The position numbers were made by a program, and so were the translations under genes. The notes under the pieces are model-generated. The model was given only the letters and a program-made list of their open reading frames with translations. It was not told the DNA's origin and ran no database searches. A stretch of DNA of 64,000 nt, from the IMG/VR virus record IMGVR_UViG_2788500287_000116; one strand, written 5' to 3'. Below are positions 5,623-23,641 of the stretch, piece by piece; position 1 is the first letter of the stretch, and every line of letters begins with the position of its first letter. Source of the DNA: an uncultured virus (IMG/VR IMGVR_UViG_2788500287_000116) (taxonomy: Duplodnaviria > Heunggongvirae > Uroviricota > Caudoviricetes).

Positions 5623-6060
5623 ATCATTTATTATTTTAACGACTTCTAAGCAGTCTTTTTGATTCCTTGGCACAAATAGTACAGGATTCATATTATTCAT
5701 CGTTAAATAGCGCTTAAAAAGCTTCCAAACCATAGGAAACCTTTCATTTGGGTTNCCTTTACACTCTATTATGAATCTTGGGGGGTCTTGTACATCAACA
5801 AAATCTGGAGTGTATGTTATGGGTAAAATCTTTTTATTACCCTTATCATGCAGAAATTTTTTCTTTGGTGTTTTTTCGTAAGAACTGAACGGCAACTGAA
5901 AGCCGTCGATGATTGTGAATTTACGTGATTCGTAACCAGCTTTTATTTTGTGCGCTTTCAATAACAGATACATATGTGATTCGAGCTTCGATTGAAATTG
6001 TATGCCGTCTATCTTGGTTTTTTTATACCTAGTTATTTGTCTTTTTTTTCTGCGATACAT
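5611..6060 (-). CDS. DUF1064-like PD-(D/E)XK endonuclease
   Basis: Motifs DGIQFQSKLE, YTPDF and IIECK. Confidence 0.75.
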   Translation of the reverse strand: MYRRKKRQITRYKKTKIDGIQFQSKLESHMYLLLKAHKIKAGYESRKFTIIDGFQLPFSSYEKTPKKKFLHDKGNKKILPITYTPDFVDVQDPPRFIIECKXNPNERFPMVWKLFKRYLTMNNMNPVLFVPRNQKDCLEVVKIINDLLR

Positions 6061-6505
6061 CTTCTAAATATAGATAATCAAAAAAAGATATACTTGTAAG
6101 TGTTCTTGCAGCCTCTATTATTGTGGGTGAATACACATTGAAGTTGCTATATATTTTTTTAATTCCTTTCCTAGTTATTTTTTCTTTTTCAACAGGCCTA
6201 AATTTTTTGAAAGAACCTATTCGATTATCGTATAAAATTTTATTAACCATCTGTTCGATTTCAACTTGTTCTATCAGGTATTCAATAGCCATTTTATTGT
6301 TTACTTGCAACTCAGCTGATGCAATATACACATAATCATTTTCAAATGAAAGTACTTCAAAGTTTCCGTCTTCATGCATAAGTACATACACAAAGTTGTC
6401 TTCTAAAAATTCTTTTAAATCTATTTTATTTAATAGGTTTTTTATGACTATGACTTCTTCATCACTTGGCTCTCTATTACAATAAAACTTTTCTGCAAAC
6501 TTCAT
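6029..6505 (-). CDS. Hypothetical protein
   Basis: 158-aa ORF. A TAAATTAG promoter-like box lies at 6510-6517, just upstream. Confidence 0.65.
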   Translation of the reverse strand: MKFAEKFYCNREPSDEEVIVIKNLLNKIDLKEFLEDNFVYVLMHEDGNFEVLSFENDYVYIASAELQVNNKMAIEYLIEQVEIEQMVNKILYDNRIGSFKKFRPVEKEKITRKGIKKIYSNFNVYSPTIIEAARTLTSISFFDYLYLEDVSQKKKTNN

Positions 6506-6519
6506 ACATCTAATTTAAT

Positions 6520-6549
6520 AAAAAAACCCCCAACATATGTGGGGGTTTC
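6520..6549 (-). terminator. Intrinsic terminator
   Basis: AAACCCCCA-n-TGGGGGTTT stem with a U tract on the minus strand. Confidence 0.8.
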
Positions 6550-6607
6550 TACATTATGAAAACATAGTCCAGAGAACAATTAAAAAAACTCTAAACTTTC
6601 AAAAACT
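6520..6607 (-). ncRNA. Candidate ~85-nt small RNA carrying an anti-start-codon motif (GUUUUCAUAAU)
   Basis: Bracketed by a TATATTTG box (6612-6619) and a terminator (6520-6549). No meaningful ORF lies between them. Complementary to early-gene start regions. Confidence 0.5.
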
Positions 6608-6611
6608 AATA

Positions 6612-6619
6612 CAAATATA
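6612..6619 (-). promoter_or_regulatory. Bacteroidota-type -7 promoter box (TATATTTG)
   Basis: Intergenic match to TAnnTTTG. Confidence 0.65.
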
Positions 6620-6629
6620 CAAAAAAATT

Positions 6630-6803
6630 TTAAAAAGGTGATTCTCCGAATCCCCATTCGTATCTCAATGTAACAAACCAAAAATGTAAGGAGAATGTAA
6701 AATGCTCTACATTTTCATCTGGCTCCCAGAATTCATAGCCAAAAACCATGGCTTCAAAAGGATGCCTTAAACTAAACGATACTTGTTCCCATTTTTCTTC
6801 CAT
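6630..6803 (-). CDS. Small hypothetical protein (57 aa, MEEKWEQVSF...; not in ORF track)
   Basis: Its ATG overlaps the upstream stop (TAATG). Confidence 0.65.
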   Translation of the reverse strand: MEEKWEQVSFSLRHPFEAMVFGYEFWEPDENVEHFTFSLHFWFVTLRYEWGFGESPF

Positions 6804-7900
6804 TAGAATATATGTGTTAATCTTGCAATTTGACCATGGTCTGGATGATGTATGAAACCTTCTATTGCTTTTGGGTTATGTTGATATCCATTCCTATGAT
6901 GCCAAGAGTCTGCAGCACTTGGACTTCTTAAACTTTCTACAGTTACACCTGTATAATCTTTTGCATTTTTATGATGCACGTGGTGTGTGTATATGTATCT
7001 ATGCTTACAGCTTGACCAATTATCCTTCGATTCAACAGCCATAAGCAAAGGTAAATTTGCGACACGCGCGCCATCACCGTGTGTTGTGCCGATTAAATTA
7101 GCTCCATACTTGTAGTACTTTCTATGTGTAATAGAGCAATCAAATGTTACGTTTTTTGCATGTCTAAACCATGACTGAATTACGTCAGCGAGAAAGAAAC
7201 CATGCGTATAGTCGTGATTTGAAGGGTTGTACATTACATGAACATCCGAAATAGAACATAGTGTTTCTATGATTTCAACATACAATGCTTTTGCCTTCAA
7301 GAAGTTTTCATACCACATACCGTCAGTATCTTGAGGTGTGCCTGATGTTGTCGTTCTTTTTGGTGTGTCTATATGTAATATATCGTTACCTATAATCAAA
7401 ACTATCATATCAAAATTAAATCCTTTAGATTTATCTAAAATACCTTTTACNCCTTCTCTTACTCGATTCACCGCTATTTCTTGGTTGTAATCTTCACCTG
7501 TTTCAAAAGCTGAAGACAACTTCCCCAAATGTATATCAGCAGGGTCAACCACTAATAAGTGAGGGCTATCTATTTTTTTTCTTTTAATAGTTTTATACCT
7601 TGGCGAATGCTCATCCATTTCTTTGATAATATCTTTACTTATTTCATTGTAAGACATTATCGCTGGTCTAACACGCACAGAATATTCTTTAGTTTTATCC
7701 CAATATTCTGTTACACTATTAAAATCTATACCTCTAGCCTCGCAGTAAGCCGCTACTCCGCTATGTTTTATTTCGTTTAGTTGTTTGATTTGGTCTTGTG
7801 AAATGTAGGCTCTAAATGTGTTTCTCCCTACTTCCAATCTTTTTAGAGGCACTCCTAATGCTTTTGCCTCATCATGAGTTAAGCGAACTCTTTTATTCAT
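6803..7900 (-). CDS. Calcineurin-like metallophosphoesterase
   Basis: Metal-binding motifs ADIHLG, GND, SNHD, THGD and HHVHH. Confidence 0.85.
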   Translation of the reverse strand: MNKRVRLTHDEAKALGVPLKRLEVGRNTFRAYISQDQIKQLNEIKHSGVAAYCEARGIDFNSVTEYWDKTKEYSVRVRPAIMSYNEISKDIIKEMDEHSPRYKTIKRKKIDSPHLLVVDPADIHLGKLSSAFETGEDYNQEIAVNRVREXVKGILDKSKGFNFDMIVLIIGNDILHIDTPKRTTTSGTPQDTDGMWYENFLKAKALYVEIIETLCSISDVHVMYNPSNHDYTHGFFLADVIQSWFRHAKNVTFDCSITHRKYYKYGANLIGTTHGDGARVANLPLLMAVESKDNWSSCKHRYIYTHHVHHKNAKDYTGVTVESLRSPSAADSWHHRNGYQHNPKAIEGFIHHPDHGQIARLTHIF

Positions 7901-8067
7901 GGTTCCATCGTTTTTTTCAAATCCTTTAAATCGTATATTAAAGAATTTATAGTGTTCTTACACTCATCGAATTCCCCATCAAAAACATCTTCGAAAGCGG
8001 AGTCTAGCTTAGTATGCATTTTNTTAAATACATTTACTAGATATTGCTCTCGTGATGTTGCTGCCAT
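7897..8067 (-). CDS. Small hypothetical protein (56 aa, MAATSREQYL...)
   Basis: Its stop overlaps the next start (ATGA). Confidence 0.55.
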   Translation of the reverse strand: MAATSREQYLVNVFXKMHTKLDSAFEDVFDGEFDECKNTINSLIYDLKDLKKTMEP

Positions 8068-8108
8068 TTTACACTTTGTGTAGGAACATGATTCCTTTTA
8101 ATAATTTA

Positions 8109-8489
8109 TCATTCATCTAAAAATTGTTTTAAATTTGGTTTAAAATACTCAGAACCTTTCATAACCTTGCCGTCTGACCTTTTTAATACCTTTCCATTTT
8201 CTAATTTACTCATGTTTGATTTATGTACTTCTTCAAACATATCGTAAAAAACTTTTTCTAACCCATGCGAAACGACAGCGCCATACAAAACGTATGCTAT
8301 GTCGATAATTGCATCACTTACTTTCACTAAATTTTCTTGCTCACACGCATCCTTATATTCATTTATTTCTTCTAAAAGCAAATTATATCTTAAATTAAAT
8401 TCATTTTTTTTNAGCAAACTTGGTTTCCTATTAACAGGAACGTTAAACGCCTTATTGAAATTAGTTAACATTGTGGTTAGTTCTGACAT
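8109..8489 (-). CDS. MazG-like / PRA-PH all-alpha NTP pyrophosphohydrolase
   Basis: Motifs LLEEINEY, DAIIDIAYV, FEEVHKSNMSK and DGKVMKG. Confidence 0.85.
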   Translation of the reverse strand: MSELTTMLTNFNKAFNVPVNRKPSLXKKNEFNLRYNLLLEEINEYKDACEQENLVKVSDAIIDIAYVLYGAVVSHGLEKVFYDMFEEVHKSNMSKLENGKVLKRSDGKVMKGSEYFKPNLKQFLDE

Positions 8490-8533
8490 TTTGTAAATGA
8501 ATTCCTCTAATTTAGAAAAAAATTATTGAATTC

Positions 8534-8764
8534 TCAACATTTTGTTAATTTTTCACTAATGTGATAATATAAATCACCTATTTTTTGCTGCATTTTTTTC
8601 TGGTCTGTTTTTTGATTATACAATTCTTGACCTCTTTTTTTCTTACCCTTGTAATTTATTTCCAGTTGTAAATGATTTTTATCATAGATGACTGGATATA
8701 TTTTTATATCATTGTCAAAACATACTTTCATTACTTCATGAACATTGAAATCTACACTTTTCAT
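8534..8764 (-). CDS. Hypothetical protein
   Basis: 76-aa ORF within the operon. Confidence 0.6.
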   Translation of the reverse strand: MKSVDFNVHEVMKVCFDNDIKIYPVIYDKNHLQLEINYKGKKKRGQELYNQKTDQKKMQQKIGDLYYHISEKLTKC

Positions 8765-9170
8765 TACCCCATTTTTTCCCTAATTGATTTACAAACCAAA
8801 CTAGACTTGCTCTTTTTTCAAAGTTATGCCATTTTTTGTTGTAATAAAATCGAGTAACAAAACATTGCTCTAAAGGTATATCTTCTACGATATCATAGAC
8901 GTCAAAGTATTCTACTTTTAAGACAACTGACTTGTGTGTTCGCCAGCTGTCGCATATTCTTTCAAGCAATAAACGCTGTCCAAGCGGTATTTTTATACCT
9001 CTTTTTTTAACTTCAATAAGTATAAGTATTTGATTATCAAACTCTAAGACAGCATCTATATCGGATGGATGCATGGCTCCATTTTGCACCATTGTAAAAT
9101 CTATTGTGCGTCGTACTTCTGCGCTATTTCTGATAAGGCTGTCCAATGATTGTGAATTAAAATTTACCAA
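8736..9170 (-). CDS. PD-(D/E)XK-like nuclease fold protein (start uncertain)
   Basis: SDIDAVLE...LIEVK motif. Confidence 0.55.
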   Translation of the reverse strand: MVNFNSQSLDSLIRNSAEVRRTIDFTMVQNGAMHPSDIDAVLEFDNQILILIEVKKRGIKIPLGQRLLLERICDSWRTHKSVVLKVEYFDVYDIVEDIPLEQCFVTRFYYNKKWHNFEKRASLVWFVNQLGKKWGNEKCRFQCS

Positions 9171-9245
9171 AAGTTGTTTTATGCAAACCTTTTAATAATA
9201 TTTTGTTAAGCCTATTTAGGTAGGCTTTAATTTTTTTTATTGTTT

Positions 9246-11003
9246 TCATAGTTCTATGTTATCAAATTCTATGTCTAGTGTTTTAGATATTTCAAATGGA
9301 TTTCTTTTGTTTACAAGCCAATTAGTATTGTCCCATGCAGGATTACCTTCTTTAATTGTGGTATACCTTCCATTGTTTACATTCCATCCATAGAAAACTT
9401 GCGCTTGATTTTCTCCAAGATTACCAAACTTTACTTTTAAAACTTTAATTTTAACAGTGCCTTTTTCATAATCTCTATGCACAAGTAAACCGTGCGGACT
9501 CATGTCATAGAACTCACCACCACCCTTCACGTCGTAAAATGTGGGCTCAAACAACTTCCCTTTATCTGATTGAGGTTTTGTTGGGTGTGCAACTAAAATG
9601 CACACAACGTCATGTTTTTTACAAAAGCTATCAATTTTATTTAAATAAATATTTGTGTAGTCAGTAATACTTAAATTTAAATTCTCTTTATCTCTTACTT
9701 TGTTATATGGGTCTATCACCAAGCATCGAATACCTAACCTTTTTACTAGTTCCTCAGCTTTCTGAAGAACGTTATCTAGATTAAAACCTTGCTCATAATC
9801 AATAAAGAAAAAGTTTTTGTTAATATGCTCTAAACAAGCTAACCAGTTTTTAGTTTTTGTTTCTTTATAATTAGGTGTTGCGCCATAAAGTTTTCTAACC
9901 AACTTATCTACATGTAGGTATTGTGGGTAGTTTTCTGTAGAGGCATATGCAGTTTTCCAACCATACATCATGTTGTATCCTATAGTCATTTGGTCTACAA
10001 AATCAGACTTTCCGCTTGAAGGAAAACCTGTTACAACAATAAATTGTTTTGTGTATGTCGAAAAAATATTATCAAAACCATTTAGTCCAATCTTGTATCC
10101 ATTCTTGATACCATGCTTATAGAAATCATCAAGGTCTGCTATGACATCTGACACTCTCAAAACATTTTCTATAGGGCAAGGCACTGCTTGATTTATTGTT
10201 TCTTTTAGTTCAGCTTTACCGTATTTAATTAGGAATTCGTTTGCATCCTTACAATCTTTTAAATCAACTAAGTATATTTTATCAGAACCTAATCTTCTTA
10301 TAAACTCTTGCTTACCATTCTCCCCTGCCTCATCATTATCCAAAGCCAAGTAAATCTTTTCTTTATTTTCAAAATAACTATAGTAATCTGTTAGGTAGTC
10401 TAAATTTATTTGACCACTAGCATTGAATCCGTTTGGAACACTTATTACATTATGAACACCAGCCTCATGATATGATGCGCAATCTATCTCCCCTTCAACT
10501 ACGACACACGTGTCGGTTTCTTTTATACTGTCGATATTGTAAAAGGTTTTTTGCGCCCCTTTGTATAGCTTAAAGTTCTTACGAGAGTCCCTGTATTTAA
10601 TGTTAACTAATTGATTATCAACAAGATAGTTAAACATAATTACATTTACTTCTTTATTTACTTGTGGCATATACTCTTGGCCGTGTGAAATTTTCAGCGT
10701 GTCGATTGTTGATTTGGATATACCTCTTTTCATAAACCAACTAACAACTTTGTCCACCATTTTTATTGGCTTAGCTTTTGGTATTGTGTATTTCTTTTCC
10801 GCTAATGAAGACTTGTACGAGTGCAGCTGCAAGACTTCGCCGCAGTGCTGGCATGTACCAAGCCCTCGTTCCCAATCAAGCATTAAACATTTCTGTGTTT
10901 TCTTTTTCCTAGTGTGTGAACATTTAGGGCATGTAGATTTTTTAGCCCTTGTGTCTAAACCATAAAGGTTGAAGGTTTCTATTTCGAAGCCGTTAATTTC
11001 CAT
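9246..11003 (-). CDS. Twinkle/T7 gp4-like DNA primase-helicase
   Basis: Zn finger CPKC...CQHC; TOPRIM motifs EGEID and LDND; Walker A GFPSSGKS; SF4 motifs VIDPY and VAHP. Confidence 0.93.
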   Translation of the reverse strand: MEINGFEIETFNLYGLDTRAKKSTCPKCSHTRKKKTQKCLMLDWERGLGTCQHCGEVLQLHSYKSSLAEKKYTIPKAKPIKMVDKVVSWFMKRGISKSTIDTLKISHGQEYMPQVNKEVNVIMFNYLVDNQLVNIKYRDSRKNFKLYKGAQKTFYNIDSIKETDTCVVVEGEIDCASYHEAGVHNVISVPNGFNASGQINLDYLTDYYSYFENKEKIYLALDNDEAGENGKQEFIRRLGSDKIYLVDLKDCKDANEFLIKYGKAELKETINQAVPCPIENVLRVSDVIADLDDFYKHGIKNGYKIGLNGFDNIFSTYTKQFIVVTGFPSSGKSDFVDQMTIGYNMMYGWKTAYASTENYPQYLHVDKLVRKLYGATPNYKETKTKNWLACLEHINKNFFFIDYEQGFNLDNVLQKAEELVKRLGIRCLVIDPYNKVRDKENLNLSITDYTNIYLNKIDSFCKKHDVVCILVAHPTKPQSDKGKLFEPTFYDVKGGGEFYDMSPHGLLVHRDYEKGTVKIKVLKVKFGNLGENQAQVFYGWNVNNGRYTTIKEGNPAWDNTNWLVNKRNPFEISKTLDIEFDNIEL

Positions 11004-11685
11004 AACTTAATATTTTAAATTCAAACCCTGGCTTATCAAAAATTGTTTTGTCTTTTTCTAATTGTTTTTTTGTTCCAGATTTTAAGGCTTGACCTTTCCA
11101 TTTCCATTTATATATACCACCTGTATTCTGCACTTCTTTTTTATTATACTTTATCCAATTTATAAAATGTGTTTTATATTCACGCATGTTTCTTTTGAAA
11201 TCACTTGTCATAGATAAGTGTTCATGAAATTTTTTCAATGCAGAGTGTAGAATATCTTTGTCTATGCTTTGATTCATACATACTTGCTCAATCCAAATCG
11301 AGTTAGATAAACATTCTTTGTGGTATTTGTCGTTATTTGTAGGGTATATTGTTACAGGTTTTTTTTGTACGCTTTCTTCTACTTGGTAGCTGCTATAATT
11401 AGCTATGGTGATAAGTGTGTACTTGTTTGTCGCATCTGTAGTTATCTCTCCTGTTCTTTGTAATCGTTTTAATGATGTCCTTAGCTGTCTGATAGGTATA
11501 TCTAAATCTTTAGATAATCTTGTAAGAGAGGTTATGTATTGTCCTTTCTTTACAGATACACCCATAAATTTGCATTTATCAAAACATGCGTTTAAAAGTA
11601 AATGTATAAATACGTTTTTTGTGTTTTTATCTCTATACCATTCCCAATCTAGAATGCTCCTGTGCAACTTTATGTACCCTTTCAT
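10993..11685 (-). CDS. Phage replication initiator / replisome organiser (winged HTH)
   Basis: N-terminus MKGYIKLHRSILDWEWY, HTH SLTRLSKDL...RTSLKRL, adjacent to the primase-helicase. The ATG at 11685 is preferred as the start. Confidence 0.75.
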   Translation of the reverse strand: MKGYIKLHRSILDWEWYRDKNTKNVFIHLLLNACFDKCKFMGVSVKKGQYITSLTRLSKDLDIPIRQLRTSLKRLQRTGEITTDATNKYTLITIANYSSYQVEESVQKKPVTIYPTNNDKYHKECLSNSIWIEQVCMNQSIDKDILHSALKKFHEHLSMTSDFKRNMREYKTHFINWIKYNKKEVQNTGGIYKWKWKGQALKSGTKKQLEKDKTIFDKPGFEFKILSYGN

Positions 11686-12178
11686 TTGTTTGTTTTTGAT
11701 TCTCAATTAAGTTTTTTAAGTCTTCAATGTTTTTGTATTCGTATACCTCTGATATAAGATTTGTCAATTGTTCTAAATATTCACAATTTTTTTCATAAAA
11801 TATTTTATCTAATACTTTTGAAATATATTGTGCGCTTTGTGCTGAGATATATTTATCATATGAAATTTGTTTTACGATTTCCATGTCTATATCTTCAACT
11901 AATTTTTTAAATGTCTTATCAGAAAAAATTAAGTTCTTAACTTTCTTTTTACTGTGTAAAACTGCTGCATGATGGTGCGCTCTTTTTCTTCCCATTTTCG
12001 TACTGAAGTCGCCAATAATTCTAAGTTTAGTATTTGTATGTTTCATGCACATATAATGAAATACTGCTCTTATATCAGCAACTTCTTGTCTTTTTGAGTT
12101 TTGAAATATGAACTCAATGTTGACCTCATACTTATCGGCAACAATTTTTGCTATTTTATAAATTGTGGTTTCTTTCAT
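11633..12178 (-). CDS. Protein with DnaA C-terminal (domain IV)-like HTH
   Basis: IAKIVADKYEV...SKRQEVADIRAVFHY...IG...HHAAVLHSKKKV parallels the DnaA domain IV signature. Confidence 0.7.
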   Translation of the reverse strand: MKETTIYKIAKIVADKYEVNIEFIFQNSKRQEVADIRAVFHYMCMKHTNTKLRIIGDFSTKMGRKRAHHHAAVLHSKKKVKNLIFSDKTFKKLVEDIDMEIVKQISYDKYISAQSAQYISKVLDKIFYEKNCEYLEQLTNLISEVYEYKNIEDLKNLIENQKQTNERVHKVAQEHSRLGMV

Positions 12179-12188
12179 TTGATTTAAT

Positions 12189-12256
12189 AAAAAAGGGGGG
12201 CCAAGGATGTAGTAAACGAACTATCTAAATTATGATTATGACTTACAAGCCCCCCT
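12189..12256 (-). ncRNA. Terminator-like stem enclosing a 47-nt region antisense to start codons
   Basis: 8-bp AGGGGGGC/GCCCCCCT stem with a U tract. The enclosed RNA contains GUCAUAAUCAUAAUUU. Confidence 0.5.
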
Positions 12257-12261
12257 ATGAT

Positions 12262-12591
12262 TTAAAATGGTAAATCGTCAAAGTCTGAGTCAGAGGCCTG
12301 CGATGTCGCATCTGTCGTAGCAGGTGATGATTGTGAATCTTTTTGACCTTTGACAATTTTGCCATCAGTCCAAATGACACTGCCATTACCAAGATAATGC
12401 TTGTCGGCTTTTCTTTCTCTTTCCTCCTGTGATTGTTGCATGGTAATTGTTACGTTTTTACCATACTTTGATTCATCATTTACAGATATTAAGACTGGTA
12501 TATAACTATCTTTTTCACCCTTAATGATTTTTGTTTTGTCAATTTTCTTCAATTCTGAAGCCTTGATTGACGCTGAAATTAATGTACTCAT
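12262..12591 (-). CDS. Probable single-stranded DNA-binding protein
   Basis: Acidic C-terminal tail DFDDLPF after a flexible linker, located in the recombination module. Confidence 0.7.
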   Translation of the reverse strand: MSTLISASIKASELKKIDKTKIIKGEKDSYIPVLISVNDESKYGKNVTITMQQSQEERERKADKHYLGNGSVIWTDGKIVKGQKDSQSSPATTDATSQASDSDFDDLPF

Positions 12592-12607
12592 ATTTATATA
12601 TTTAAAA

Positions 12608-12715
12608 TTAAATTTTTAGTAAGCTATAAGCTATAATCATACAAAAGATTATAACCATTATACGTTCCATCCACGAATCTAAAGAATCGTATTTAGTGTT
12701 TCTATATTTCTTCAT
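12608..12715 (-). CDS. Small membrane peptide (35 aa)
   Basis: MKKYRNTKYDSLDSWMERIMVIIFCMIIAYSLLKI; fills the intergenic gap. Confidence 0.4.
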   Translation of the reverse strand: MKKYRNTKYDSLDSWMERIMVIIFCMIIAYSLLKI

Positions 12716-13427
12716 ACTTCATAAAATCTTTTAGCTTGTCTGTTTTATCTAGGAAATACTTTTTATAGTTATCCTCTGCTTGTTCTACTTTTTCTTGCCC
12801 TTTGGTATATGAATTATCGGACACATCAAACAAACCAATACAACCTGTCTTCTTTTCGATGACTATGAACCTCATCGGTTTTTGAAACATTTTTGAGTAT
12901 ATGAAGGCTTGTGAATCATAATTATATGTAAAAAAACTATGACGGAAACCTTTCAAATTACTTGTAGTTTTTATGTCGTACAACCAGTCGTTAGTAACTA
13001 TGTCGGCTTTACACTTCCATTCTATGTTGTTGTCTGTAAGTACATCGACGTTAGGGACTTCAAATTGTACATCAGGATTGTTCAATACTTCTGCGACAAA
13101 CTCGTTGTCTTTAGCTTTGTTGACTTCATTTATAAGCTGCTCCGCTTCGCTTTCCAGAAGCATCATATCCAGATTCTTTTCTGCTAAAGCCTCTTTGTAT
13201 ATGTTTGTTCTCCTTGAACTACACGAAATAAACTGTGGCTTTGTGCCAAACATCAACATCTCATGAAATGCTTGTCCATATTCAAAAGCTACACTTTGTT
13301 CCTTCGGCTTTTGAAAGTCGTTAGGATTGTTGATTAAGTCGTATATGTCGGAATTAGATAAATACTTTTTACCTAACTCGCCGTAATAGTTCTTATCATC
13401 TTTAAGTTGTTCAATTATTTTTTCCAT
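12702..13427 (-). CDS. RecE/DUF3799-like PD-(D/E)XK exonuclease
   Basis: Motifs LSNS, GQAFH, KCKADI, YDIKTT and YDSQAFIY. Confidence 0.85.
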   Translation of the reverse strand: MEKIIEQLKDDKNYYGELGKKYLSNSDIYDLINNPNDFQKPKEQSVAFEYGQAFHEMLMFGTKPQFISCSSRRTNIYKEALAEKNLDMMLLESEAEQLINEVNKAKDNEFVAEVLNNPDVQFEVPNVDVLTDNNIEWKCKADIVTNDWLYDIKTTSNLKGFRHSFFTYNYDSQAFIYSKMFQKPMRFIVIEKKTGCIGLFDVSDNSYTKGQEKVEQAEDNYKKYFLDKTDKLKDFMKYEEI

Positions 13428-13891
13428 ACCTGTGCCTCCTGTCTTTTGAAGTCTTCGCTTTCATCTTCACCAAACACACCTAGTTCATAGAAACCAGTCA
13501 ATTTTAAGACTGCTCTACTCATTGCGCGTTTTTCTGCCATTTCCATAACATACCAAGTGTTACAGTTTCCAACTCTTGTTTGTTTTATATCATCTACAAG
13601 ATTGCCCTCAGAATCTTTCTTCTTTATTATCTCTTGCTTATACTCTTGAATCAGTGCGGAGCCAAATGTCTGTATATTTTTATTGCCATCGTATCCGTGT
13701 GAAGCTCTTGCTTTTACGACACAGAAGTTAGCTTCACAGTTTATAACGTCATATTCGATATGTATTGCTGCTTGTGCTTGTATTTTATCAATACCACTCC
13801 TGGTGATGATTACGTAATGTTGATGCTTGAAAACATCACTTTTGTCTAGACCATACTTTTTGTATAGTTCTTTTAGTTTTTCGATTTTCAT
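13415..13891 (-). CDS. Putative single-strand annealing protein (recombinase)
   Basis: MAEKRAMSRAVLK and FGEDE motifs; directly upstream of the exonuclease and SSB. Confidence 0.45.
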   Translation of the reverse strand: MKIEKLKELYKKYGLDKSDVFKHQHYVIITRSGIDKIQAQAAIHIEYDVINCEANFCVVKARASHGYDGNKNIQTFGSALIQEYKQEIIKKKDSEGNLVDDIKQTRVGNCNTWYVMEMAEKRAMSRAVLKLTGFYELGVFGEDESEDFKRQEAQVWKK

Positions 13892-13932
13892 AATATTAAA
13901 TTAAATTATTAACAATAATACGCAATATAATG

Positions 13933-14355
13933 TTAGTATCCTAACAAAGTGCGTAATTTTTTTATTCTGCGTAAGGTTTTTCTGAAATAAAATTCTTTTT
14001 CCTTTTCGCTTTTTTTTGCGATAGCTATATGAAACATATTCCTATTTATAGCTATGGATTCAACAGTGTTTTTTGTAGCTAAATCTTGTGCAAATTGTTC
14101 GACACCAACATGTATCATGTCCGCTATCTCGTAATTTGAAAGTGGTCTGTATATGTCTGTTGAGGTATCAAAAATTTCCATTGTAAAACTTTTTGTGTTG
14201 GATTGATTCTTAATAGAACTTTTACTTATCTTGATTGTTTTATAAAAAATATGTGTAGTCGGTGGAAAATTAACTATTTTTGAGTTTCTGTTACTAGCAA
14301 GCAAGTTCCATGCTTTGTCTAGCAAGCGATTTCGTTCTCTTATTTTTTCTATCAT
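13933..14355 (-). CDS. Hypothetical protein
   Basis: 140-aa ORF coupled to the upstream ORF. Confidence 0.6.
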   Translation of the reverse strand: MIEKIRERNRLLDKAWNLLASNRNSKIVNFPPTTHIFYKTIKISKSSIKNQSNTKSFTMEIFDTSTDIYRPLSNYEIADMIHVGVEQFAQDLATKNTVESIAINRNMFHIAIAKKSEKEKEFYFRKTLRRIKKLRTLLGY

Positions 14356-14612
14356 TTTTGAAAATTGTGAATTGTATAATTGATTAAATTGATTACTGTC
14401 TGCCCAATTATTTCAGCATTCTTAGTTTCTAGTTCTTGAGCCAACCTGATATCATTAGGTTTTTTTGTACCTAATTTTACGCCATGATGCTTCATTTCAG
14501 CATGTGTAACGCGTTTTGTAATTTTATTGATGGTATTGTAAACTGCTTGAAAAACCTTATCATTTTTTTCATGTGAGAGTAAGGTAGAATGTAGGTAGTC
14601 TGGTGCTTTCAT
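14352..14612 (-). CDS. Hypothetical protein
   Basis: 86-aa ORF; TAAATTTG box at 14618-14625. Confidence 0.6.
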   Translation of the reverse strand: MKAPDYLHSTLLSHEKNDKVFQAVYNTINKITKRVTHAEMKHHGVKLGTKKPNDIRLAQELETKNAEIIGQTVINLINYTIHNFQK

Positions 14613-14640
14613 ATTAACAAATTTAATAAATTTTTGTGAA

Positions 14641-14967
14641 TTAATCTAATTTTAATGTATCTTTCTTTATAACTAGGCTGTCTTTACGTGCCAATATTAA
14701 CCCATTATATGTAGGCGAAAGTATTGTATCTATGTTTGTCGTGCCGTAATAATAGGTATCAACTTTTCGATAATATGTGTTATAAAATTGTTCGTGTGTT
14801 ACAAGTGGCGGCATCTGTGATTTACAGGATGCAACCAGCAGCAATAGGCATAAAATCACGACAATGTTCCATATAAATGTTGCGGTGTCGTATCTGTCGT
14901 ATCTGTCGTATCTGTCGGATTTGCCGTCGCGTCTGTCGTATCTGTAGTGATTGTGATTTTGATTCAT
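14641..14967 (-). CDS. Putative lipoprotein / membrane protein with N-terminal RYD repeats
   Basis: Hydrophobic stretch ending LLVASC (lipobox-like). Confidence 0.5.
   Translation of the reverse strand: MNQNHNHYRYDRRDGKSDRYDRYDRYDTATFIWNIVVILCLLLLVASCKSQMPPLVTHEQFYNTYYRKVDTYYYGTTNIDTILSPTYNGLILARKDSLVIKKDTLKLD
14886..14945. repeat. 9-bp tandem repeat TGTCGTATC (four perfect copies plus degenerate ones)
   Basis: Read directly: tgtcgtatc x3, tgtcggatt, tgccgtcgcgtc, tgtcgtatc. Confidence 0.85.
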
Positions 14968-14976
14968 AATTTTTTT

Positions 14977-15219
14977 TTATTTATTAGCGTCCATGTTTTC
15001 TATTTTTAGTTGTTTTTCTGCATTACTTTGCATATATCTATTTAGCATTTTTTCGAGAAACTTTATTTGTCTAGTAGATGCTTGTAATAGTGTGATAGCA
15101 GATACAAGTATTTCTTTTTCGTCTGTAGTTTTGTATAGCCATTTTTTTGGCTCTTTGCCAAACAATGCTGTGTCGTTTTCACGCATTGCTTTGTTGATGC
15201 TTTTGATAAGTGCGTCCAT
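14977..15219 (-). CDS. Hypothetical coiled-coil protein
   Basis: 80-aa ORF. Confidence 0.55.
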   Translation of the reverse strand: MDALIKSINKAMRENDTALFGKEPKKWLYKTTDEKEILVSAITLLQASTRQIKFLEKMLNRYMQSNAEKQLKIENMDANK

Positions 15220-15231
15220 TGTTTTGATTTA

Positions 15232-15381
15232 TTAGTTAATATTTAATGCTCTCAATTTGAACATTGCTTCTTCATATTTTGCTACGATTTTATCATAGTC
15301 AATATGTTTTACACCATCAGCATCCACCCAATAGTGTATTGGAATGGTTAAGACGGATGGTAAAAAGTTTTCTGATTCCAT
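15232..15381 (-). CDS. Small hypothetical protein (49 aa, MESENFLPSV...)
   Basis: ATTATG start; fills the gap between neighbours. Confidence 0.5.
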   Translation of the reverse strand: MESENFLPSVLTIPIHYWVDADGVKHIDYDKIVAKYEEAMFKLRALNIN

Positions 15382-15383
15382 AA

Positions 15384-15497
15384 TTAATTAGTTAATAAGT
15401 GTGACTTGATGATTATATAAATGATTGTGATTAGCATTCCTAAATAAGATAGGAATGTTGCGTAAACTTTTGCTTTGTATTTTTTGTCGTCTTTCAT
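15384..15497 (-). CDS. Small membrane peptide (MKDDKKYKAK...)
   Basis: ATTATG start at 15497; one hydrophobic helix. Confidence 0.5.
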   Translation of the reverse strand: MKDDKKYKAKVYATFLSYLGMLITIIYIIIKSHLLTN

Positions 15498-15499
15498 AA

Positions 15500-15583
15500 T
15501 TAGTATTTTAGGAAGTATAGCCATAAAAGGATATACAATATAATAAATTCTATTATTCTTATTAAGTATTTTTTTATTTTCAT
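15500..15583 (-). CDS. Small membrane peptide (27 aa, MKIKKYLIRIIEFIILYILLWLYFLKY)
   Basis: Its ATG overlaps the stop of the 839-aa ORF. Confidence 0.4.
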   Translation of the reverse strand: MKIKKYLIRIIEFIILYILLWLYFLKY

Positions 15584-18102
15584 TATTCTTGATTTTGTTG
15601 TTGTAATAGTTCTGTATAAAAACCATCATCGTTGTTATATTCTTCTAGATAGCTGTCAATGTCTTCTTGTGGTGTATTTGTATAACATAACACATATGAA
15701 CCTTCTTGATTGGTATCGAGACTGTGGTACATATTTTCCGTATTATCAATATGTGTGTATGACCCTGTTACCTCACAGTAGTGGCTATCATCTATATGTA
15801 TATTGAAGTCTTCCCATTCGTCGTAGACTGTATCATCATTACTGTAATAATCTTGTGCATTACCATTGCTGTCGTGTGTTAGAGTACAGTTACGTATGTG
15901 TGCGTGTTGTTGTGTGCTTTCATTGAATACAACGTCCTCGCTAAATTCTGTGTGATATTCCCCTTCGTCTTCAAGCCATACCGAATCATCATGATATATG
16001 TAATCATTTACGTCTTCAGCAAATACAGCTTCACTTTCGTGTATCCATTCACTGTGTGTTTCAGACCACCTGCATTCATCTTCTGGATATTCAGTTTCGT
16101 TGATGATTACCATACCCTCCACTGTGGGATGAGATTGTCTATGTTCATGCATACCTGTGAAGCCTCGTACCTGTCCACTTGTAGATGTGAGAATAAACTT
16201 GTTCCATTCTTCTACATGCCATTCTCGTATTTTGTCAACACGGTTTGTTAGTGTTACTGTGTCAAATGTTTTGTTTACATATGCGTGTTTCATTGTGTCA
16301 ACATATGGAACGTACTTTGGATAGTCGTATGGTATTTGTAACCATAATGTCAAATCGCATTCATCACCTTGAGGTGTGTACAAGAGCTCACCTTCTTCAT
16401 ATGATTGATAGCGTTTGTAGTACATATTGTTTTTTTCAGCGTAACCTTTGAATGCGCTGATTGTTTTATCGTTACCATATATTCTGTCCATGAACGTGAT
16501 TTCTTGGACACCTGATGATTCTGGTAAAGATGCATTGAGTTTCCATATCAATGCACGACCTGTTACGTGGCCGTCTTCGTTCAGTGATATTAGTAGTTTA
16601 CAATGTTTTTCATACAAGTCAAAGAATTTTGTACATGAGTCATAACGCATACATGAGCTGGATAGTGAGCCTGTATTATCGTTTGAGTATGTTTGATAAT
16701 GATAGTATTTGGTTATGTCTGAACCCTCAACAATTTTGAATGTATCGGTAAACGTATAAACACTTTTGATGTGGTTTTGTATGATTTCAATAGCATAGTC
16801 TGGTATATCAATTAGTTTGTATGCTAGTAGTTTTTTGATTGCTTTACCAAACTTTGTCACTTGTCGACCGTTACCAGATAGCCATGTGAAATTACTGGTT
16901 AGTATTGTTGGCTTGCCTGCTGGTGTGTATGTGCATTGTCCACGGTTGTTGATTGTGAAATGTCTATCATGTTGTATTGAACATTGATGTTTTGATAGTA
17001 AGTTGAAATATTGCCATGCAATAGCATAATCAACTTGTGCCTGTGCATTTGGTATTTTTTTGGGTTTACGCGTCTCGATATATTTGCATGCTTGTAGCAG
17101 CGTTGAGTGTAGTGAGCGTGATATAAATGAGTTAGGTATATCAGCGGTGTCTGGATTTAGATGAATTGAATACTTTGAATATTTCAGCATTCCTTTATCG
17201 AAACCTATAAAGAAACAATTACCTGGCCGACCACCACCCAAATCGATTGATTGTAGAAGTTTTGATATGCGGTGATATGCAGGAAATTTAGACATTACAC
17301 TATGATTGTGCATATTCATAAATCTAAATTCAAAGTTGTGTGTAGAATTATTCATTGAGTGTAAATGTTTTACGTCTGCAAAGTGTAAGTATTGTTGAAA
17401 CCCTTTTATTACATTACGATACATTTTTGCATGAAACATAAATATTTTGTTGTAAAGTAGGTTTGCAGTATTGTAGTGCCATTTACAGTATTCAATGGTT
17501 GTTTCAGATTGATTGGAATATACAATGTCCATGTAATCGAGCATACTTTGATGTATATCGCAATCTGTTGCAAATTTGTCTGGTGTAATATGCCATGTAT
17601 ACATATTTGCTACCCATGTACGATTGCTATCATTTGTTAGATTGCTTTGGTACAGATGTTTGAATTTTTCATGTCTTGTTTCGTTAGTGAGTTGTCTGAT
17701 ATCACGTTCAGTTAGTATGTCTTTGAGACCGTGACGTATAAGTTTTTGAACGTTAGTTGACATAATAGTCCTGTCTGAAGATATTACTGCTTCACCCAAA
17801 TCATTCAACCATGATGGTACTTTCACTCGTTTTTGGTAACTAGCAGTTTGTATACCATTGATTATGTTCACGTAGTCTTCAATCTTGAAGCGTATTTTAC
17901 TGATGATTTGTTTTACAGTGATGTACGCAGTATAATCTCGTCGTAGTATACGATGAATAATATTTGTTAGATATTTTTTTTCAGTGTACGATAAATGGCT
18001 AGCTCTTTTGATTAGATGTAGCCACACGTCTGCAGTAAACGTTGTATCTTTTGGCAAGAAGCATAGTTCACGTTTGTTTGTTGATATGAGTTTGAATGAC
18101 AT
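15583..18102 (-). CDS. Large early phage protein with SSCM / GRALIW / MDRIY / PYVDT motifs and an acidic repetitive C-terminus
   Basis: 839-aa ORF. The motif set is one I recognise from an uncharacterised phage protein family. Confidence 0.65.
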   Translation of the reverse strand: MSFKLISTNKRELCFLPKDTTFTADVWLHLIKRASHLSYTEKKYLTNIIHRILRRDYTAYITVKQIISKIRFKIEDYVNIINGIQTASYQKRVKVPSWLNDLGEAVISSDRTIMSTNVQKLIRHGLKDILTERDIRQLTNETRHEKFKHLYQSNLTNDSNRTWVANMYTWHITPDKFATDCDIHQSMLDYMDIVYSNQSETTIEYCKWHYNTANLLYNKIFMFHAKMYRNVIKGFQQYLHFADVKHLHSMNNSTHNFEFRFMNMHNHSVMSKFPAYHRISKLLQSIDLGGGRPGNCFFIGFDKGMLKYSKYSIHLNPDTADIPNSFISRSLHSTLLQACKYIETRKPKKIPNAQAQVDYAIAWQYFNLLSKHQCSIQHDRHFTINNRGQCTYTPAGKPTILTSNFTWLSGNGRQVTKFGKAIKKLLAYKLIDIPDYAIEIIQNHIKSVYTFTDTFKIVEGSDITKYYHYQTYSNDNTGSLSSSCMRYDSCTKFFDLYEKHCKLLISLNEDGHVTGRALIWKLNASLPESSGVQEITFMDRIYGNDKTISAFKGYAEKNNMYYKRYQSYEEGELLYTPQGDECDLTLWLQIPYDYPKYVPYVDTMKHAYVNKTFDTVTLTNRVDKIREWHVEEWNKFILTSTSGQVRGFTGMHEHRQSHPTVEGMVIINETEYPEDECRWSETHSEWIHESEAVFAEDVNDYIYHDDSVWLEDEGEYHTEFSEDVVFNESTQQHAHIRNCTLTHDSNGNAQDYYSNDDTVYDEWEDFNIHIDDSHYCEVTGSYTHIDNTENMYHSLDTNQEGSYVLCYTNTPQEDIDSYLEEYNNDDGFYTELLQQQNQE

Positions 18103-18104
18103 AA

Positions 18105-19097
18105 TTATATTTTTGGATTAGATATATATTCTTGACATGAGTAGCACCAGAACTCTTGTACCGTNTCATCGTATTCTTGAACGCAGTCCCTTCCGCANCT
18201 TGGACAAGGCGGTGCATCATCATNATCAAATGTNTCTGTTGTGAAATCATCATCGTAAAAGTCCCATGCACGTGATTGTGATACACCGATTNTTTTTGGT
18301 TTATAGTTTGAGAAGTTGAATTGATTGTAGTTGTGGCGACTATCTTGTGGTGACCACTTGATTGGTTTTTTGATTGTATCAAATATTTCAATACACAACT
18401 GTCTCGTTAGCTCAACCTCGTCGACTTTGATATACTCTGTGTCTGTGTGAGGATTGTAGTAACCGCATGACATGTTTGCACCCATGATATCTAGCTTGGG
18501 TAGTATTTCACCAACGTCTGTGATACCACCAGTACAAATGTCACGTCCGTATTTTTTTAGTATGGGTTTGATNAGGTTGTGNTACTTGTCGTTGAATAAT
18601 TTTTTACCACTGATACTGTTNACAAAATCTTTGTAGCCACGTCTGTCACATTCTAGNACAGTTGTGCAGTCTTTGAAGAATGATAGTTCTGCGTGTGATG
18701 AGCCGACACAACCAGATTCTTCATCAAGAAAGAATACAGCTTTGAAGTTGTTGTAATGTCGTAGCATTTCTAGTGTAATNAATATACCAACTTTGTCGTC
18801 ACCACCAGTACCGATTTGTTCTTTGGTATGCATGTCGAATGCAACCATGATGTTTTCATGTTCGAATATGCGTGGTGATTTNGCAATGTTATGTACTGTG
18901 TCGATGTGGCATACCATACATGGATAATANTCTGCATGACCTTTNGCGCAGTATATANTGCCGTANCTGTCTTTTGTATATGTTAGNTGTAATTTGTCAA
19001 GCTCGTTGCAAATGTATTTAGCCATTCGTTGTGTCTGATACGTTTTGCTTTGTATTGCAAGTAGTTTCTTCAGACGATTCTTTCTCTTGATTTTCAT
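18105..19097 (-). CDS. M20/M28-family zinc peptidase with C-terminal Zn ribbon
   Basis: Motifs HIDTVH, GGDDKVG, DEESG and YYNPHT; C-terminal CPxC...CYSC. Confidence 0.85.
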   Translation of the reverse strand: MKIKRKNRLKKLLAIQSKTYQTQRMAKYICNELDKLXLTYTKDXYGXIYCXKGHAXYYPCMVCHIDTVHNIXKSPRIFEHENIMVAFDMHTKEQIGTGGDDKVGIXITLEMLRHYNNFKAVFFLDEESGCVGSSHAELSFFKDCTTXLECDRRGYKDFXNSISGKKLFNDKXHNXIKPILKKYGRDICTGGITDVGEILPKLDIMGANMSCGYYNPHTDTEYIKVDEVELTRQLCIEIFDTIKKPIKWSPQDSRHNYNQFNFSNYKPKXIGVSQSRAWDFYDDDFTTXTFDXDDAPPCPXCGRDCVQEYDXTVQEFWCYSCQEYISNPKI

Positions 19098-19148
19098 AAT
19101 TGATTCGTATTTGGTTCATAATAATTTTNGTTATCTCGCTTACGTGTT

Positions 19149-19379
19149 TCATACTTTACGTGGTTTAAATGTTAGTATTGCAGAGTGACTGGTTATGTCT
19201 GTATCATTTGGTGATAAACCTAACCCTGATTGTATTTCTTCACGAACACCTGTGAGCAAGAAACCACAACCTTTTGCAGCTGTNTTCTCGTCGGCAACGT
19301 ATACGTCTACGTTTGTACCCATTTTTTCAGACGTTTTTTTGATGGCTTGAAGCCATAGTATAAGATTATCTATTTTCAT
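19149..19379 (-). CDS. Hypothetical protein
   Basis: 76-aa ORF with an ATTATG start. Confidence 0.6.
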   Translation of the reverse strand: MKIDNLILWLQAIKKTSEKMGTNVDVYVADEXTAAKGCGFLLTGVREEIQSGLGLSPNDTDITSHSAILTFKPRKV

Positions 19380-19671
19380 AATATATATCTTTTAGAATGT
19401 TAGGCGAGTTGTATAGCATGATTGTGATNAGGTATAACATACCGCAGAACACAGGGGACAATGCGAGAATGAGAAACAATTCGAGAGAGAATATTAGTCG
19501 CATTAGAAACCCTGTGATGCCTGCGATAGCCAAACCAAATAACAAACCTGTTATTGTCGCAATGATTTTGTTTGCCGTCTTTGTTTTGTTTACGGTGATT
19601 ACGGTGACACCGTGTTTGTTTTTTCTGTGTGATATAGTCACACCTGTCGAAAGTTTTTTGGTTTTAGACAT
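19366..19671 (-). CDS. Two-TM membrane protein
   Basis: Two hydrophobic segments after a basic N-terminus. Confidence 0.6.
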   Translation of the reverse strand: MSKTKKLSTGVTISHRKNKHGVTVITVNKTKTANKIIATITGLLFGLAIAGITGFLMRLIFSLELFLILALSPVFCGMLYXITIMLYNSPNILKDIYYENR

Positions 19672-19693
19672 GATAGTAATATTAATTGGTTAG

Positions 19694-19764
19694 TAGCGCG
19701 TGCAGGGAACGAACCTGCATTTTCACCGTGAAAGGGTGACGTCCTGACATTAGACGAACGCGCC
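19694..19764 (-). tRNA. tRNA-Glu(UUC), atypical D- and T-loops
   Basis: Acceptor GGCGCGT/ACGCGCT, D stem GTC/GAC, anticodon arm TCACC-CTTTCAC-GGTGA, T arm GCAGG-TTCGTTC-CCTGC. No encoded CCA. Confidence 0.88.
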
Positions 19765-19769
19765 ATGTT

Positions 19770-19879
19770 CTCTAGTAATGCGAACGAAGTGAGGAATATT
19801 TGAGGCCGCTCACAACGTNCGACTTACACTACTAGAGCATACAACACGGAATTGCACCGATATCATATTTAGTTGTATG
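19770..19879 (-). ncRNA. Candidate structured RNA (two hairpins) upstream of the tRNA
   Basis: 11-bp stem 19770-19780/19827-19837 with inner helices; 8-bp stem 19838-19845/19872-19879. Confidence 0.45.
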
Positions 19880-19887
19880 ATGCATNA

Positions 19888-20190
19888 TTAGAAAGGTAAG
19901 GAAGCAAGCTCTGCTTGCGAATACCTTTTCTGTAACAATTGCATTGCAATGTTCTCGTTGTTTTGTTCATCGAAGCGTTGTTCAAGAACCCATGCTTCAA
20001 CAGAAGCTTTGGTGATGCCCTTGGATGTCGCATCGATACGAGTGTACATTTTTGGAAGTACTGTGTCGGCAATGTAATCTTGACCCAAAAGTGTTAGGTT
20101 TTTCACGATGTATGCTTTTTCAGTTTCCATGCTGATTGTGAACTCAACAGCAACTGGCTTGTCGAGTGCTACTTGATTTGATTTTGACAT
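19888..20190 (-). CDS. Hypothetical early protein (ETEKA motif, C-terminal LPF)
   Basis: The ATG at 20190 has an ATTATTATG context. The track's longer start runs back into the terminator. Confidence 0.65.
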   Translation of the reverse strand: MSKSNQVALDKPVAVEFTISMETEKAYIVKNLTLLGQDYIADTVLPKMYTRIDATSKGITKASVEAWVLEQRFDEQNNENIAMQLLQKRYSQAELASLPF

Positions 20191-20280
20191 AATAATAAAT
20201 TTAGTACAGAGAACTAGTAAACTCTGTGTTAGTAATCTAGTTTTTAAAAAAAATTCATAAAGAAATTGTTCGAAGAACAT

Positions 20281-20306
20281 AAAAAAAAGAGGGGCAAAGC
20301 CCCTCT
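20281..20306 (-). terminator. Intrinsic terminator
   Basis: AGAGGGGC-TTT-GCCCCTCT followed by a long U tract. Confidence 0.85.
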
Positions 20307-20311
20307 AATTC

Positions 20312-20887
20312 TTACTGATACTCTGGGTTATCAATTTCCCATTGCGCTAGTGCAGGTTCAATTGAGTTGAAACCCATGTTGACCCTGTCCTCCATGTAAT
20401 CAAAGAGCTCCTGCTCGTGAGATAGAAGGCAAGTTTGTTCAGCAACGGATGTTGGATTGTCGTCGTTGTGAAAGTATTCTTCATCGACGACTGGTACAGC
20501 TGTGAACTTGAGCTCAAATGTACGCATCAACCATGTAGGAATNTAGACGACAAATCTATCAATCATAGTGTAGTAAGTTTGCACTTTACCGTCAACCAAA
20601 CGTGATTTGAAGTTGGATACATTACGAGTGTTGTAATCGTCAATGACCATAGATTCAGTGATGAGGTTTTGTGGAAACTCTACATATGATTGTGAATGGT
20701 GTTTCCATTCAATAGTACGTTGCGTGGTACCAGACTCGTTCCATGAGATTGGTATCCATTTGTTCTTGTACTGTTTCTTGCCGTCCAACGAAGTTGGATT
20801 GACAATGAACATTGATTTGCGCGACTTGGAACCGATGATAGATACTACCATAGGAACCGATTTGTAACTTGATTTGTAAGTTTTCAT
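20312..20887 (-). CDS. First gene of the early arm, hypothetical
   Basis: 191-aa ORF with an A/U-rich leader and a terminator downstream. Confidence 0.7.
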   Translation of the reverse strand: MKTYKSSYKSVPMVVSIIGSKSRKSMFIVNPTSLDGKKQYKNKWIPISWNESGTTQRTIEWKHHSQSYVEFPQNLITESMVIDDYNTRNVSNFKSRLVDGKVQTYYTMIDRFVVXIPTWLMRTFELKFTAVPVVDEEYFHNDDNPTSVAEQTCLLSHEQELFDYMEDRVNMGFNSIEPALAQWEIDNPEYQ

Positions 20888-21725
20888 AATATAAAATTTA
20901 AATTAATTGTAAGTGACTCTCACTTACACACGTGGAAGTGTAACAGGATTCGAAATAAATTGTGTCAAGGGCGAGCTTGCTCGCTTGTATACCCTTGACA
21001 TTTTTATTTGAACTCCTGTATTTTTGCAAAAACAGNNCNNNAAGCNNCNNATTTGTATTGCTTCNATGCATGCTTAGCATGCTNCNGAAAGATGCAAATT
21101 TTTTGCTACGTGTGTGTGAGAAGATGAACGGAATATCCGAGACAAGTAGAGGTTCCCTCCTGCGCTTGCGCAGACTTGTCGAGAAAATAAATAATACAGA
21201 ATGATATGGTTGTGAGTGCACAATGAAGAACTGGAACGGTATGAGCGATGTGCTGAGCGTAGCTCGAACACAGCGAATATAGTGTAAGTTTGGAATTGAC
21301 AACGAGCAAATTTATTGAAGATATGATGTGATACCTTTGACACGTGATACTATTCATGGAAGACGCGAAGCGTATTGGGGTACAAATGTTTANGTTNTTG
21401 AAATGGATAGGGGTGGTTATCGAATGATTGTGAACACAAGAGAGAGATAAATTATAAAATACCGAAAGAACTTGTTTCTTGAGACCGCTTCAAAGAGTGT
21501 ATTTTTTCAAAGGCTACAAAAAAAGGTAAAAAATTTNGAGATATGTAAAAAAGATAGCAAGGGGGTGGGGTTAGAAAAAGCAGTTTGCAAGTATGCTATA
21601 GGTGTATAAATAGTATGTTACCCAAACACTACGTATATCTGGTGGCCTAAAAACTTCAAAGCTTATAACTATATAATATAGTGTCCATTAATTTACAGGA
21701 ATGCGCCACATTAATTATTTTTACC

Positions 21726-21733
21726 TATATTTG
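21726..21733 (+). promoter_or_regulatory. -7 promoter box TATATTTG
   Basis: TAnnTTTG at the head of the plus arm. Confidence 0.6.
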
Positions 21734-21762
21734 TAGTATGTTAGATACCTCAACGCAGACAT

Positions 21763-23637: not shown

Positions 23638-23641
23638 AATT

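Follow-up and report, generated by a model that had tools for sequence, protein, structure and literature searches.

According to our analysis, the large-loop hairpin behind the ssb-like gene of this phage is interpreted, with moderate confidence, as a leaky terminator or 3′ stabiliser of the ssb-like message, whose loop is exchangeable and is either cis-acting or a passenger. A signal at the transcript end is the most likely function because related phages swap the loop for other shapes. An earlier sequence-only reading took the loop for a second antisense RNA directed, like an element at 6.5 kb, at the start of the first early gene (gene 20887); an antisense role of the loop, against this or any other target, appears possible, at a distinctly lower probability.

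The window (the whole stretch of DNA analysed) comprises the first 64,000 bases of a phage genome of 64,653 bases with 34% GC, and this genome is complete, since the end of its sequence repeats the start. Genes for a terminase, a portal, GroEL/GroES, a primase-helicase and a DnaD-like initiator were found, and the early and replication genes are carried by the minus strand, from 20887 down to 5611. Two features orient the early region and its surroundings:

22030 to 24132, plus strand: phage-encoded GroEL and GroES genes.
19694 to 19764, minus strand: tRNA gene of the early region (Rfam, 57.3 bits), present at the same place in the relative L030.

A capsid-region protein matched 85 phage records, 84 of them phages of Flavobacterium, Cellulophaga and Maribacter; it is 48–54% identical to its counterparts in the Maribacter phage Panino and in Elemo phages, and Cellulophaga phages were matched too. 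The chaperonin gene cpn10, a core gene of the Pervagoviridae (PMC8776804), is common to the Pervagoviridae-like podoviruses of Flavobacteriia treated there and to the window phage. Judged by gene content and protein matches, the window represents a complete marine phage of the Flavobacteriia type that appears Pervagoviridae-like. The largest contigs of the same assembly have about 64% GC, in comparison to 34% for the phage contig (C66), which is probably a binning contaminant; the organism of the assembly is therefore unlikely to be the phage host.

The hairpin and its neighbours are arranged as follows:

12608 to 12715, minus strand: unannotated ORF for a hydrophobic peptide of 35 aa, between the exonuclease and ssb genes.
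12262 to 12591, minus strand: ssb-like gene, 109 aa, with an acidic DDLPF end, just upstream of the hairpin.
12189 to 12256, minus strand: large-loop hairpin with a G6/C6 clamp stem of 8–9 bp, an open loop of 45–47 nt and a U6 tail.
11633 to 12178, minus strand: gene with a DnaA C-terminal HTH, directly downstream of the hairpin (PF08299, 38.3 bits, cut-off 31.5).

The ssb-like gene sits between the exonuclease VIII and initiator genes, and the HTH gene is the first of the initiator/primase-helicase block. The DLPF tail is invariant in 32 homologs of the ssb-like protein, and this tail together with synteny makes the ssb label probable. The structural model of the protein (pLDDT 65, pTM 0.46) gave a best Z of 3.9 and no named SSB in fold searches, family searches brought no confirmation, and Atlas searches returned no name for either this protein or the product of gene 20887. 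A peptide similar to that of the 35-aa ORF is found in 52 of 54 segments of relatives.

The anatomy of the hairpin is as the sequence-only reading had described it, namely an 8-bp stem with a U tail around 47 nt. The 5′ arm AGGGGGGC (12256–12249) pairs with GCCCCCCU (12201–12194) on the minus strand and encloses 47 nt (12248–12202); a ninth pair, U-G, would leave 45 nt. Six U follow the stem at 12194–12189, and the U-rich tract reads UUUUUUAUU in both the window and the relative L003. The hairpin is GC-rich (seven G-C pairs) with a folding energy of −18.2 kcal/mol, and equally stable folds were obtained in 5/200 shuffles. The loop is indeed oversize, as had been claimed: its 45–47 nt compare with the 3–10 nt used as a selection rule for intrinsic terminators in bioRxiv 10.64898/2026.05.29.728758. 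Folding shows it to be accessible as well; the centroid fold leaves the loop unpaired, and opening CAUAAU costs less than 1 kcal/mol. Two halves can be distinguished:

12225 to 12248, minus strand: 5′ half of the loop; it contains two copies of UCAUAAU, is the complement of start-codon regions and forms the part common to the G001 lineage (see below).
12203 to 12224, minus strand: 3′ half of the loop, outside the three-block duplex described below, yet also unchanged in L003.

In a scan of the contig for large-loop GC stems with a U tail, the post-ssb hairpin was the only intergenic match at the stringency applied; the other large-loop match (47804–47857) lies inside the portal gene. A terminator scan did not report the hairpin. 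No TAnnTTTG box precedes it, the minus strand being free of this box from 14625 to 8826, and an Rfam scan of 5000–23000 with E up to 1 found only the tRNA and a weak unrelated match at 20282–20337. Two further ideas about the hairpin were discarded. A small plus-strand ORF (13 aa; 9 aa in L003) is not conserved. A captured gene junction, with a plus-strand ...VNELSKL-stop overlapping MIMTYK, had no donor: the search returned 12 viral 18-mer, 4 genome 20-mer and 18 viral 17-mer matches, the non-self ones could not be extended, and there was no convincing gene start among the matches.

The main evidence for an exchangeable loop comes from the relatives. The ssb-like protein was found at 153 loci, 142 of which had enough downstream DNA, yielding 76 distinct segments; in 56 of these an HTH homolog comes next, and they form the syntenic set. 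A strict scan detected a GC hairpin in 50/56 syntenic post-ssb segments, and in the six that it missed, all of the pseudoknot or GAAA/AGUA type, a closing stem can still be seen. The loops of the 56 segments fall into 20 of the GAAA/AGUA type, 14 UUCG, 12 other, four pseudoknot, four open with UCAUAAU and two other open loops. In L038 and L039 the flanking proteins are nearly identical and the stems and loops differ. Taken with the hairpin in 50/56 segments, this exchange indicates a conserved stem around exchangeable loops.

Several of the other loops deserve a description of their own. Internal-loop hairpins of the form GAAA...AGUAG with variable tips occupy 20/56 segments (L013–L035, L244–L266); we take the GAAA/AGUA module to be a bulged-G-like motif, and Rfam gave no match among the scanned hairpins of this type from relatives. 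A second module in the post-ssb slot consists of a stem with a bulge-loop pseudoknot (CUGG/CCAG) and occurs in L239:10331–10400, L010, L011, L041, L272 and L290. Two of its pairs change on both sides among four distinct rows, a value reached by 31/500 shuffles, and Rfam had no match for L010 and L041.

Like intrinsic terminators and 3′ stem-loops of operons, the window hairpin combines a GC stem with a U run, lies between a stop codon and the following gene, and is conserved in position; it differs in its loop of 45–47 rather than 3–10 nt, which is swapped among relatives, with a U run of six. Going by this position and by what is generally known of terminators, we propose that the hairpin ends the ssb-like message as a leaky intrinsic terminator and also blocks exonucleases. 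The ssb-like message would thus be kept abundant, and less transcription would enter the DnaA-HTH/initiator/primase block. Small RNAs and partial termination are known in Flavobacterium, according to PMC9723704. From the comparison of relatives, the closing stem would be the part conserved in the phage family and the loop an exchangeable insert. The A/U-rich open insert of the window lineage seems to be selected, most likely in cis, through folding, termination strength, stability or protein binding.

Some observations count against this cis reading. The complete lack of changes in the loop relative to L003 would need explaining, the loop size is outside the norm, and at least five T within 10 bases at the stem end were present in only 26 of the 50 hairpins. 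Furthermore, an open UCAUAAU clamp occurs in two separate lineages, and the start of gene 20887 ranks first of 68 for the loop and second for the seed of the 6.5-kb element.

The constancy of the loop was compared with the surrounding divergence. Between the window and L003, 146/698 four-fold silent sites differ (21%), as against 0/46 loop positions; in the two flanking genes 14/78 silent sites differ, which gives P about 1e-4 at this local rate, with the caution that the locus varies in identity along its length and that intergenic DNA elsewhere is equally conserved (11/250; Fisher p 0.22). This alignment suggests selection on the loop. The UCAUAAU seed is unchanged within the window lineage and is present in 4/56 syntenic segments.

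An antisense role was first assessed on the target that had been proposed for it:

20312 to 20887, minus strand: first early gene (gene 20887), 191 aa, of unknown function, with 35 homologs.
20874 to 20900, minus strand: proposed target, the start region of gene 20887, with its ATG at 20887–20885.

The claimed three collinear blocks across the AUG are present. The start reads TAAATT-ttat-ATTATGA-aaa-CTTACAA (20900–20874), and 20 loop bases in blocks of 6+7+7 are complementary to it. With a target named in advance this match is strong; with a free choice of start it is borderline (by score) or ordinary (by energy). Within −22/+18, gene 20887 ranks first of 68 starts at −16.0 kcal/mol. With gene 20887 as the fixed target, the energy was reached by 0/300 shuffled loops and the Watson-Crick score by 2/2000; with all 68 starts open to choice the corresponding numbers were 173/300 and 101/2000, and with the 25 early starts 62/300 and 34/2000. 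Random real stretches of sequence reached the Watson-Crick score 8 (gene 20887), 83 (any start) and 38 (early starts) times per 2000. Gene 20887 becomes second of 68 within −35/+30 and second of 71 among automatically called starts, and its site is outside the 25 best of 6460 stretches of the genome. Among pooled starts of related phages it ranks 15/2658 by energy, and its Watson-Crick score is equalled by 15/2658, the target included.

The duplex itself is weak: of its −12.1 kcal/mol, 3.5 and 3.05 are spent on opening, and a net value of about −6 kcal/mol remains. The window loop scores −19.0 and −16.8 against starts of the complete phage genome G001, −16.1 against G002 and −16.0 against G003, in comparison to −16.0 for its own, and a preference for the own genome was seen for none of the four open loops against shuffles (35, 46, 37 and 64 of 100). 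Scored as an anti-start sequence, the window loop reached z 2.1 against shuffles; for a pattern-selected set from low-GC phages with a weak trend, at least 33 different large loops behind genes that end in DLPF, the mean anti-start z was 0.43 vs 0.15 for the sense control. We infer from these comparisons that the fit to gene 20887 stems from a general likeness of the loop to the complement of A/U-rich Bacteroidota starts rather than from a dedicated pairing.

The best non-self duplex of the loop in the genome involves another site, 12641–12624, with 17/18 contiguous pairs and −27.8 kcal/mol. Pairing with this ssb leader was rejected: the site is inside the coding 35-aa ORF and is mutated in L003, where the loop is intact. 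Such matches thus arise without being conserved. If the loop is no guide, the lesson would be one of caution, namely that three-block matches to starts arise readily in A/U-rich phages of Bacteroidota, and a better but unconserved duplex only 400 bases away underlines it.

The element at 6.5 kb is the real context for anti-start RNAs in this phage:

6518 to 6619, minus strand: candidate sRNA gene, with a TATATTTG box at 6619–6612, the seed TGTTTTCAT at 6564–6556 and a terminator at 6548–6524.

Its comparison across relatives points to a candidate conserved unit of promoter, seed and terminator, better supported than the post-ssb hairpin. GTTTTCA precedes the terminator in 27/29 distinct segments of relatives (52 loci), L040 being without it and L265 having it only at another place. 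Most seeds read GTTTTCAT, others have CAC or CAA, and the three versions GTTTTCA(T/C/A) correspond as complements to ATG, GTG and TTG starts. A TAnnTTTG box, which PMC7366714 gives as the Bacteroidetes −7 consensus, is found 28–67 bases upstream of the seed in 25/29 segments, with a variable spacer. The seed forms the complement of ATGAAAACA, a common start present at 74/2658 pooled starts, and stays fixed while the start of the first gene varies among relatives. Gene 20887 is the second-best start for this seed in the window (16 contiguous pairs), but since the seed fits a common start and ignores the changes of the first gene, gene 20887 is not singled out. Of the two-RNA shut-off of gene 20887 suggested earlier, the conserved 6.5-kb unit and the high rank of the gene for its seed have held up, whereas no conserved circuit emerged. 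Pairing of the loop CUACAU with the 6.5-kb RNA was also considered and rejected, as an insertion in L003 breaks it. Whichever reading of the hairpin is correct, two better-supported RNA candidates result from this work, the 6.5-kb anti-start sRNA gene and the covarying post-ssb pseudoknot.

A second lineage whose G6/C6 clamp holds UCAUAAU bears on every antisense reading. It consists of L030, L048, L270 and L271 and includes the complete genome G001; whole-genome tblastn gave no gene 20887 homolog for it among the matches listed. In a tree of 46 ssb and HTH pairs (pairs below 55% ssb identity and incomplete genes omitted), this lineage falls within the UUCG phages (support 0.93–0.99), apart from the window lineage; the UCAUAAU loop therefore arrived twice or was exchanged. 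The similarity of the window and G001 loops is borderline (117/2000 shuffles). Where the window duplex has its AAA bulge, the G001 loop carries three additional bases; this loop ranks the gene 20887 start 56/2658, its anti-start score does not reach significance (p 0.11), and a change in L271 lets CAUA pair within the loop, as seen by eye. A search for G6-TCATAAT-C6 hairpins revealed no third lineage; among 22 pattern matches, only the two known lineages had post-ssb clamps.

A tentative and rather doubtful assumption is that the post-ssb hairpin is a cassette slot in which a conserved clamp holds swappable RNA modules, with at least two lineages bearing an anti-AUG guide on an RNA of 62–68 nt. 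The modules (bulged-G hairpin, bulge-loop pseudoknot and open guide loop) would ride on an abundant replication message, and the RNA would be released by termination at its 3′ end and perhaps by a cut of the RNase P type at the 5′ G run. The guide would then join the conserved 6.5-kb sRNA in curbing the translation of host mRNAs or early phage mRNAs. Should this be true, it would be a case of an sRNA just emerging within the loop of a terminator; for a guide of any kind, phages of Bacteroidota, which do without SD sequences, would gain translational regulators through a seed inserted in a terminator loop.

Known systems offer partial parallels. GibS and FopS of Bacteroides thetaiotaomicron likewise use a single-stranded A/U-rich seed around starts in SD-less Bacteroidota (PMC7366714, PMC11697453); FopS sRNAs have 65–70 nt, and FopS-14 is 3′-derived (PMC11697453). 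The seed of these RNAs is a conserved free 5′ region behind a promoter (PMC7366714, PMC11697453), whereas the window loop is enclosed by a stem, lacks a TAnnTTTG box and is specific to its lineage; a better fit to the GibS/FopS type is the 6.5-kb element. The c4 antisense RNA of phages P1 and P7 (PMC5320573) resembles the window hairpin in size, in a closing stem that starts with GG and in loop seeds to the ribosome-binding region, and by analogy a c4-like processing from a longer transcript would apply to the window RNA. That RNA has three stem-loops and two short seeds, and its processing by RNase P has been shown (PMC5320573), whereas the window hairpin has one closing stem, a single open loop and no Rfam match; its 5′ G run is compatible with an RNase P cut, and no CCA follows the stem. 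The hairpin is a member of neither the GibS/FopS nor the c4 type, as an Rfam match, a three-stem fold and co-occurrence with a target are all absent. Our literature search, with supplements and most subscription papers outside its scope, returned nothing on this hairpin or on sRNAs behind ssb in phages of Bacteroidota.

The specific proposal that the hairpin is freed as a 3′-UTR RNA that, alongside the 6.5-kb RNA, covers the AUG of gene 20887, as a young addition of this lineage, is unlikely. It would shut off the first early gene once the replication genes are expressed. Besides the top rank among 68 starts, the fixed-target tests and the pooled rank given above, it draws on the energies against homologs: the loop scores −16.0 with its own first-gene start and only −7.9 to −10.1 with the starts of five homologs, and the MKTYK start of gene 20887 is lineage-specific, being common to 1/35 homologs. 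The invariance of the loop in L003, the extra G001 bases at the AAA bulge and the G001 rank of 56/2658 would also fit. However, with a free target the energy is not significant and the score borderline, the gene falls to second place in the wider start region and its site outside the 25 best, and the net binding is low. The conserved 3′ half of the loop has no part in the duplex. Among the relatives with both an ssb and a gene 20887 homolog (8 loci, 7 distinct), the open loop occurs in 0/8, G002 is also without it, and the G001 lineage has the core and no target gene; the expected co-variation of loop and target was not borne out, and one lineage cannot show it. By these results, the outcome that the sequence-only reading had named as its refutation has largely come about. 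The openness of the loop and its first place among 68 starts thus stand, and an antisense relation to gene 20887 in particular finds no counterpart in the eight loci or in a preference for the own genome.

A hairpin just upstream of the gene 20887 start region (20908–20928, minus strand) has a GAGAG/GAGA tip. Its stems are changed in L004, L008 and L261, and ACUUACA at +6 of gene 20887 is a possible second partner for its 5′ arm.

Even less likely is a trans-acting antisense seed, carried on an abundant phage message, for host mRNAs or for starts of the (G)AUUAUGA type. The UCAUAAUC core occurs in two lineages, its complement has G at −4 where gene 20887 has U, the entire loop is conserved relative to L003, and the anti-start scores of the window loop and of the set of at least 33 loops lean the same way; GibS and FopS of Bacteroides work so (PMC7366714, PMC11697453). 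Against this stand the borderline similarity of the two loops, the G001 anti-start p of 0.11, the L271 change with its pairing inside the loop and the 22 pattern matches with no further family member. Exact 17–20-mer scans found no gene-start target, and a search of 301 genomes near a Gracilimonas-titled record, which may not be the group of the host, gave six matches with no shared gene start.

Binding of a protein to the loop as DNA or RNA, for example to a tandem TCATAA operator of the HTH protein and with no base pairing, is improbable: the tandem TCATAA-TCATAA adjoins the gene for a DnaA-type HTH and its sequence is conserved, but the HTH gene is present in 56/56 syntenic segments and the repeat is confined to the window lineage. 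We give marginally less credence still to a sensor in which an early transcript pairs with the loop, stiffens it and opens the clamp for read-through into the initiator/primase genes, since the loop is not conserved, the duplex is weak and relatives have tetraloops at the same junction, even though the hairpin lies directly before the replication block and gene 20887 has its own strong terminator (20306–20288), so that its message is probably short.

Hairpins in comparable places were also seen in other phages. In a cultured Elemo phage (NC_055852.1, L334:9320–9356), a possible model for bench work, GGTTTTCAT lies in a hairpin after the ssb-like homolog, followed by a terminator-like stem; 40 starts were compared with it and gave no clear target. 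The loop motif ATTAAATGTTTT recurs in large clamp hairpins that follow genes with a DLPF end in other low-GC phages (L094, L098, L104, L112, L113, L128 and L149); the 12-base complement of this motif is found at 0/2658 start regions, and its 9-base core at 8, vs 1.3 expected.
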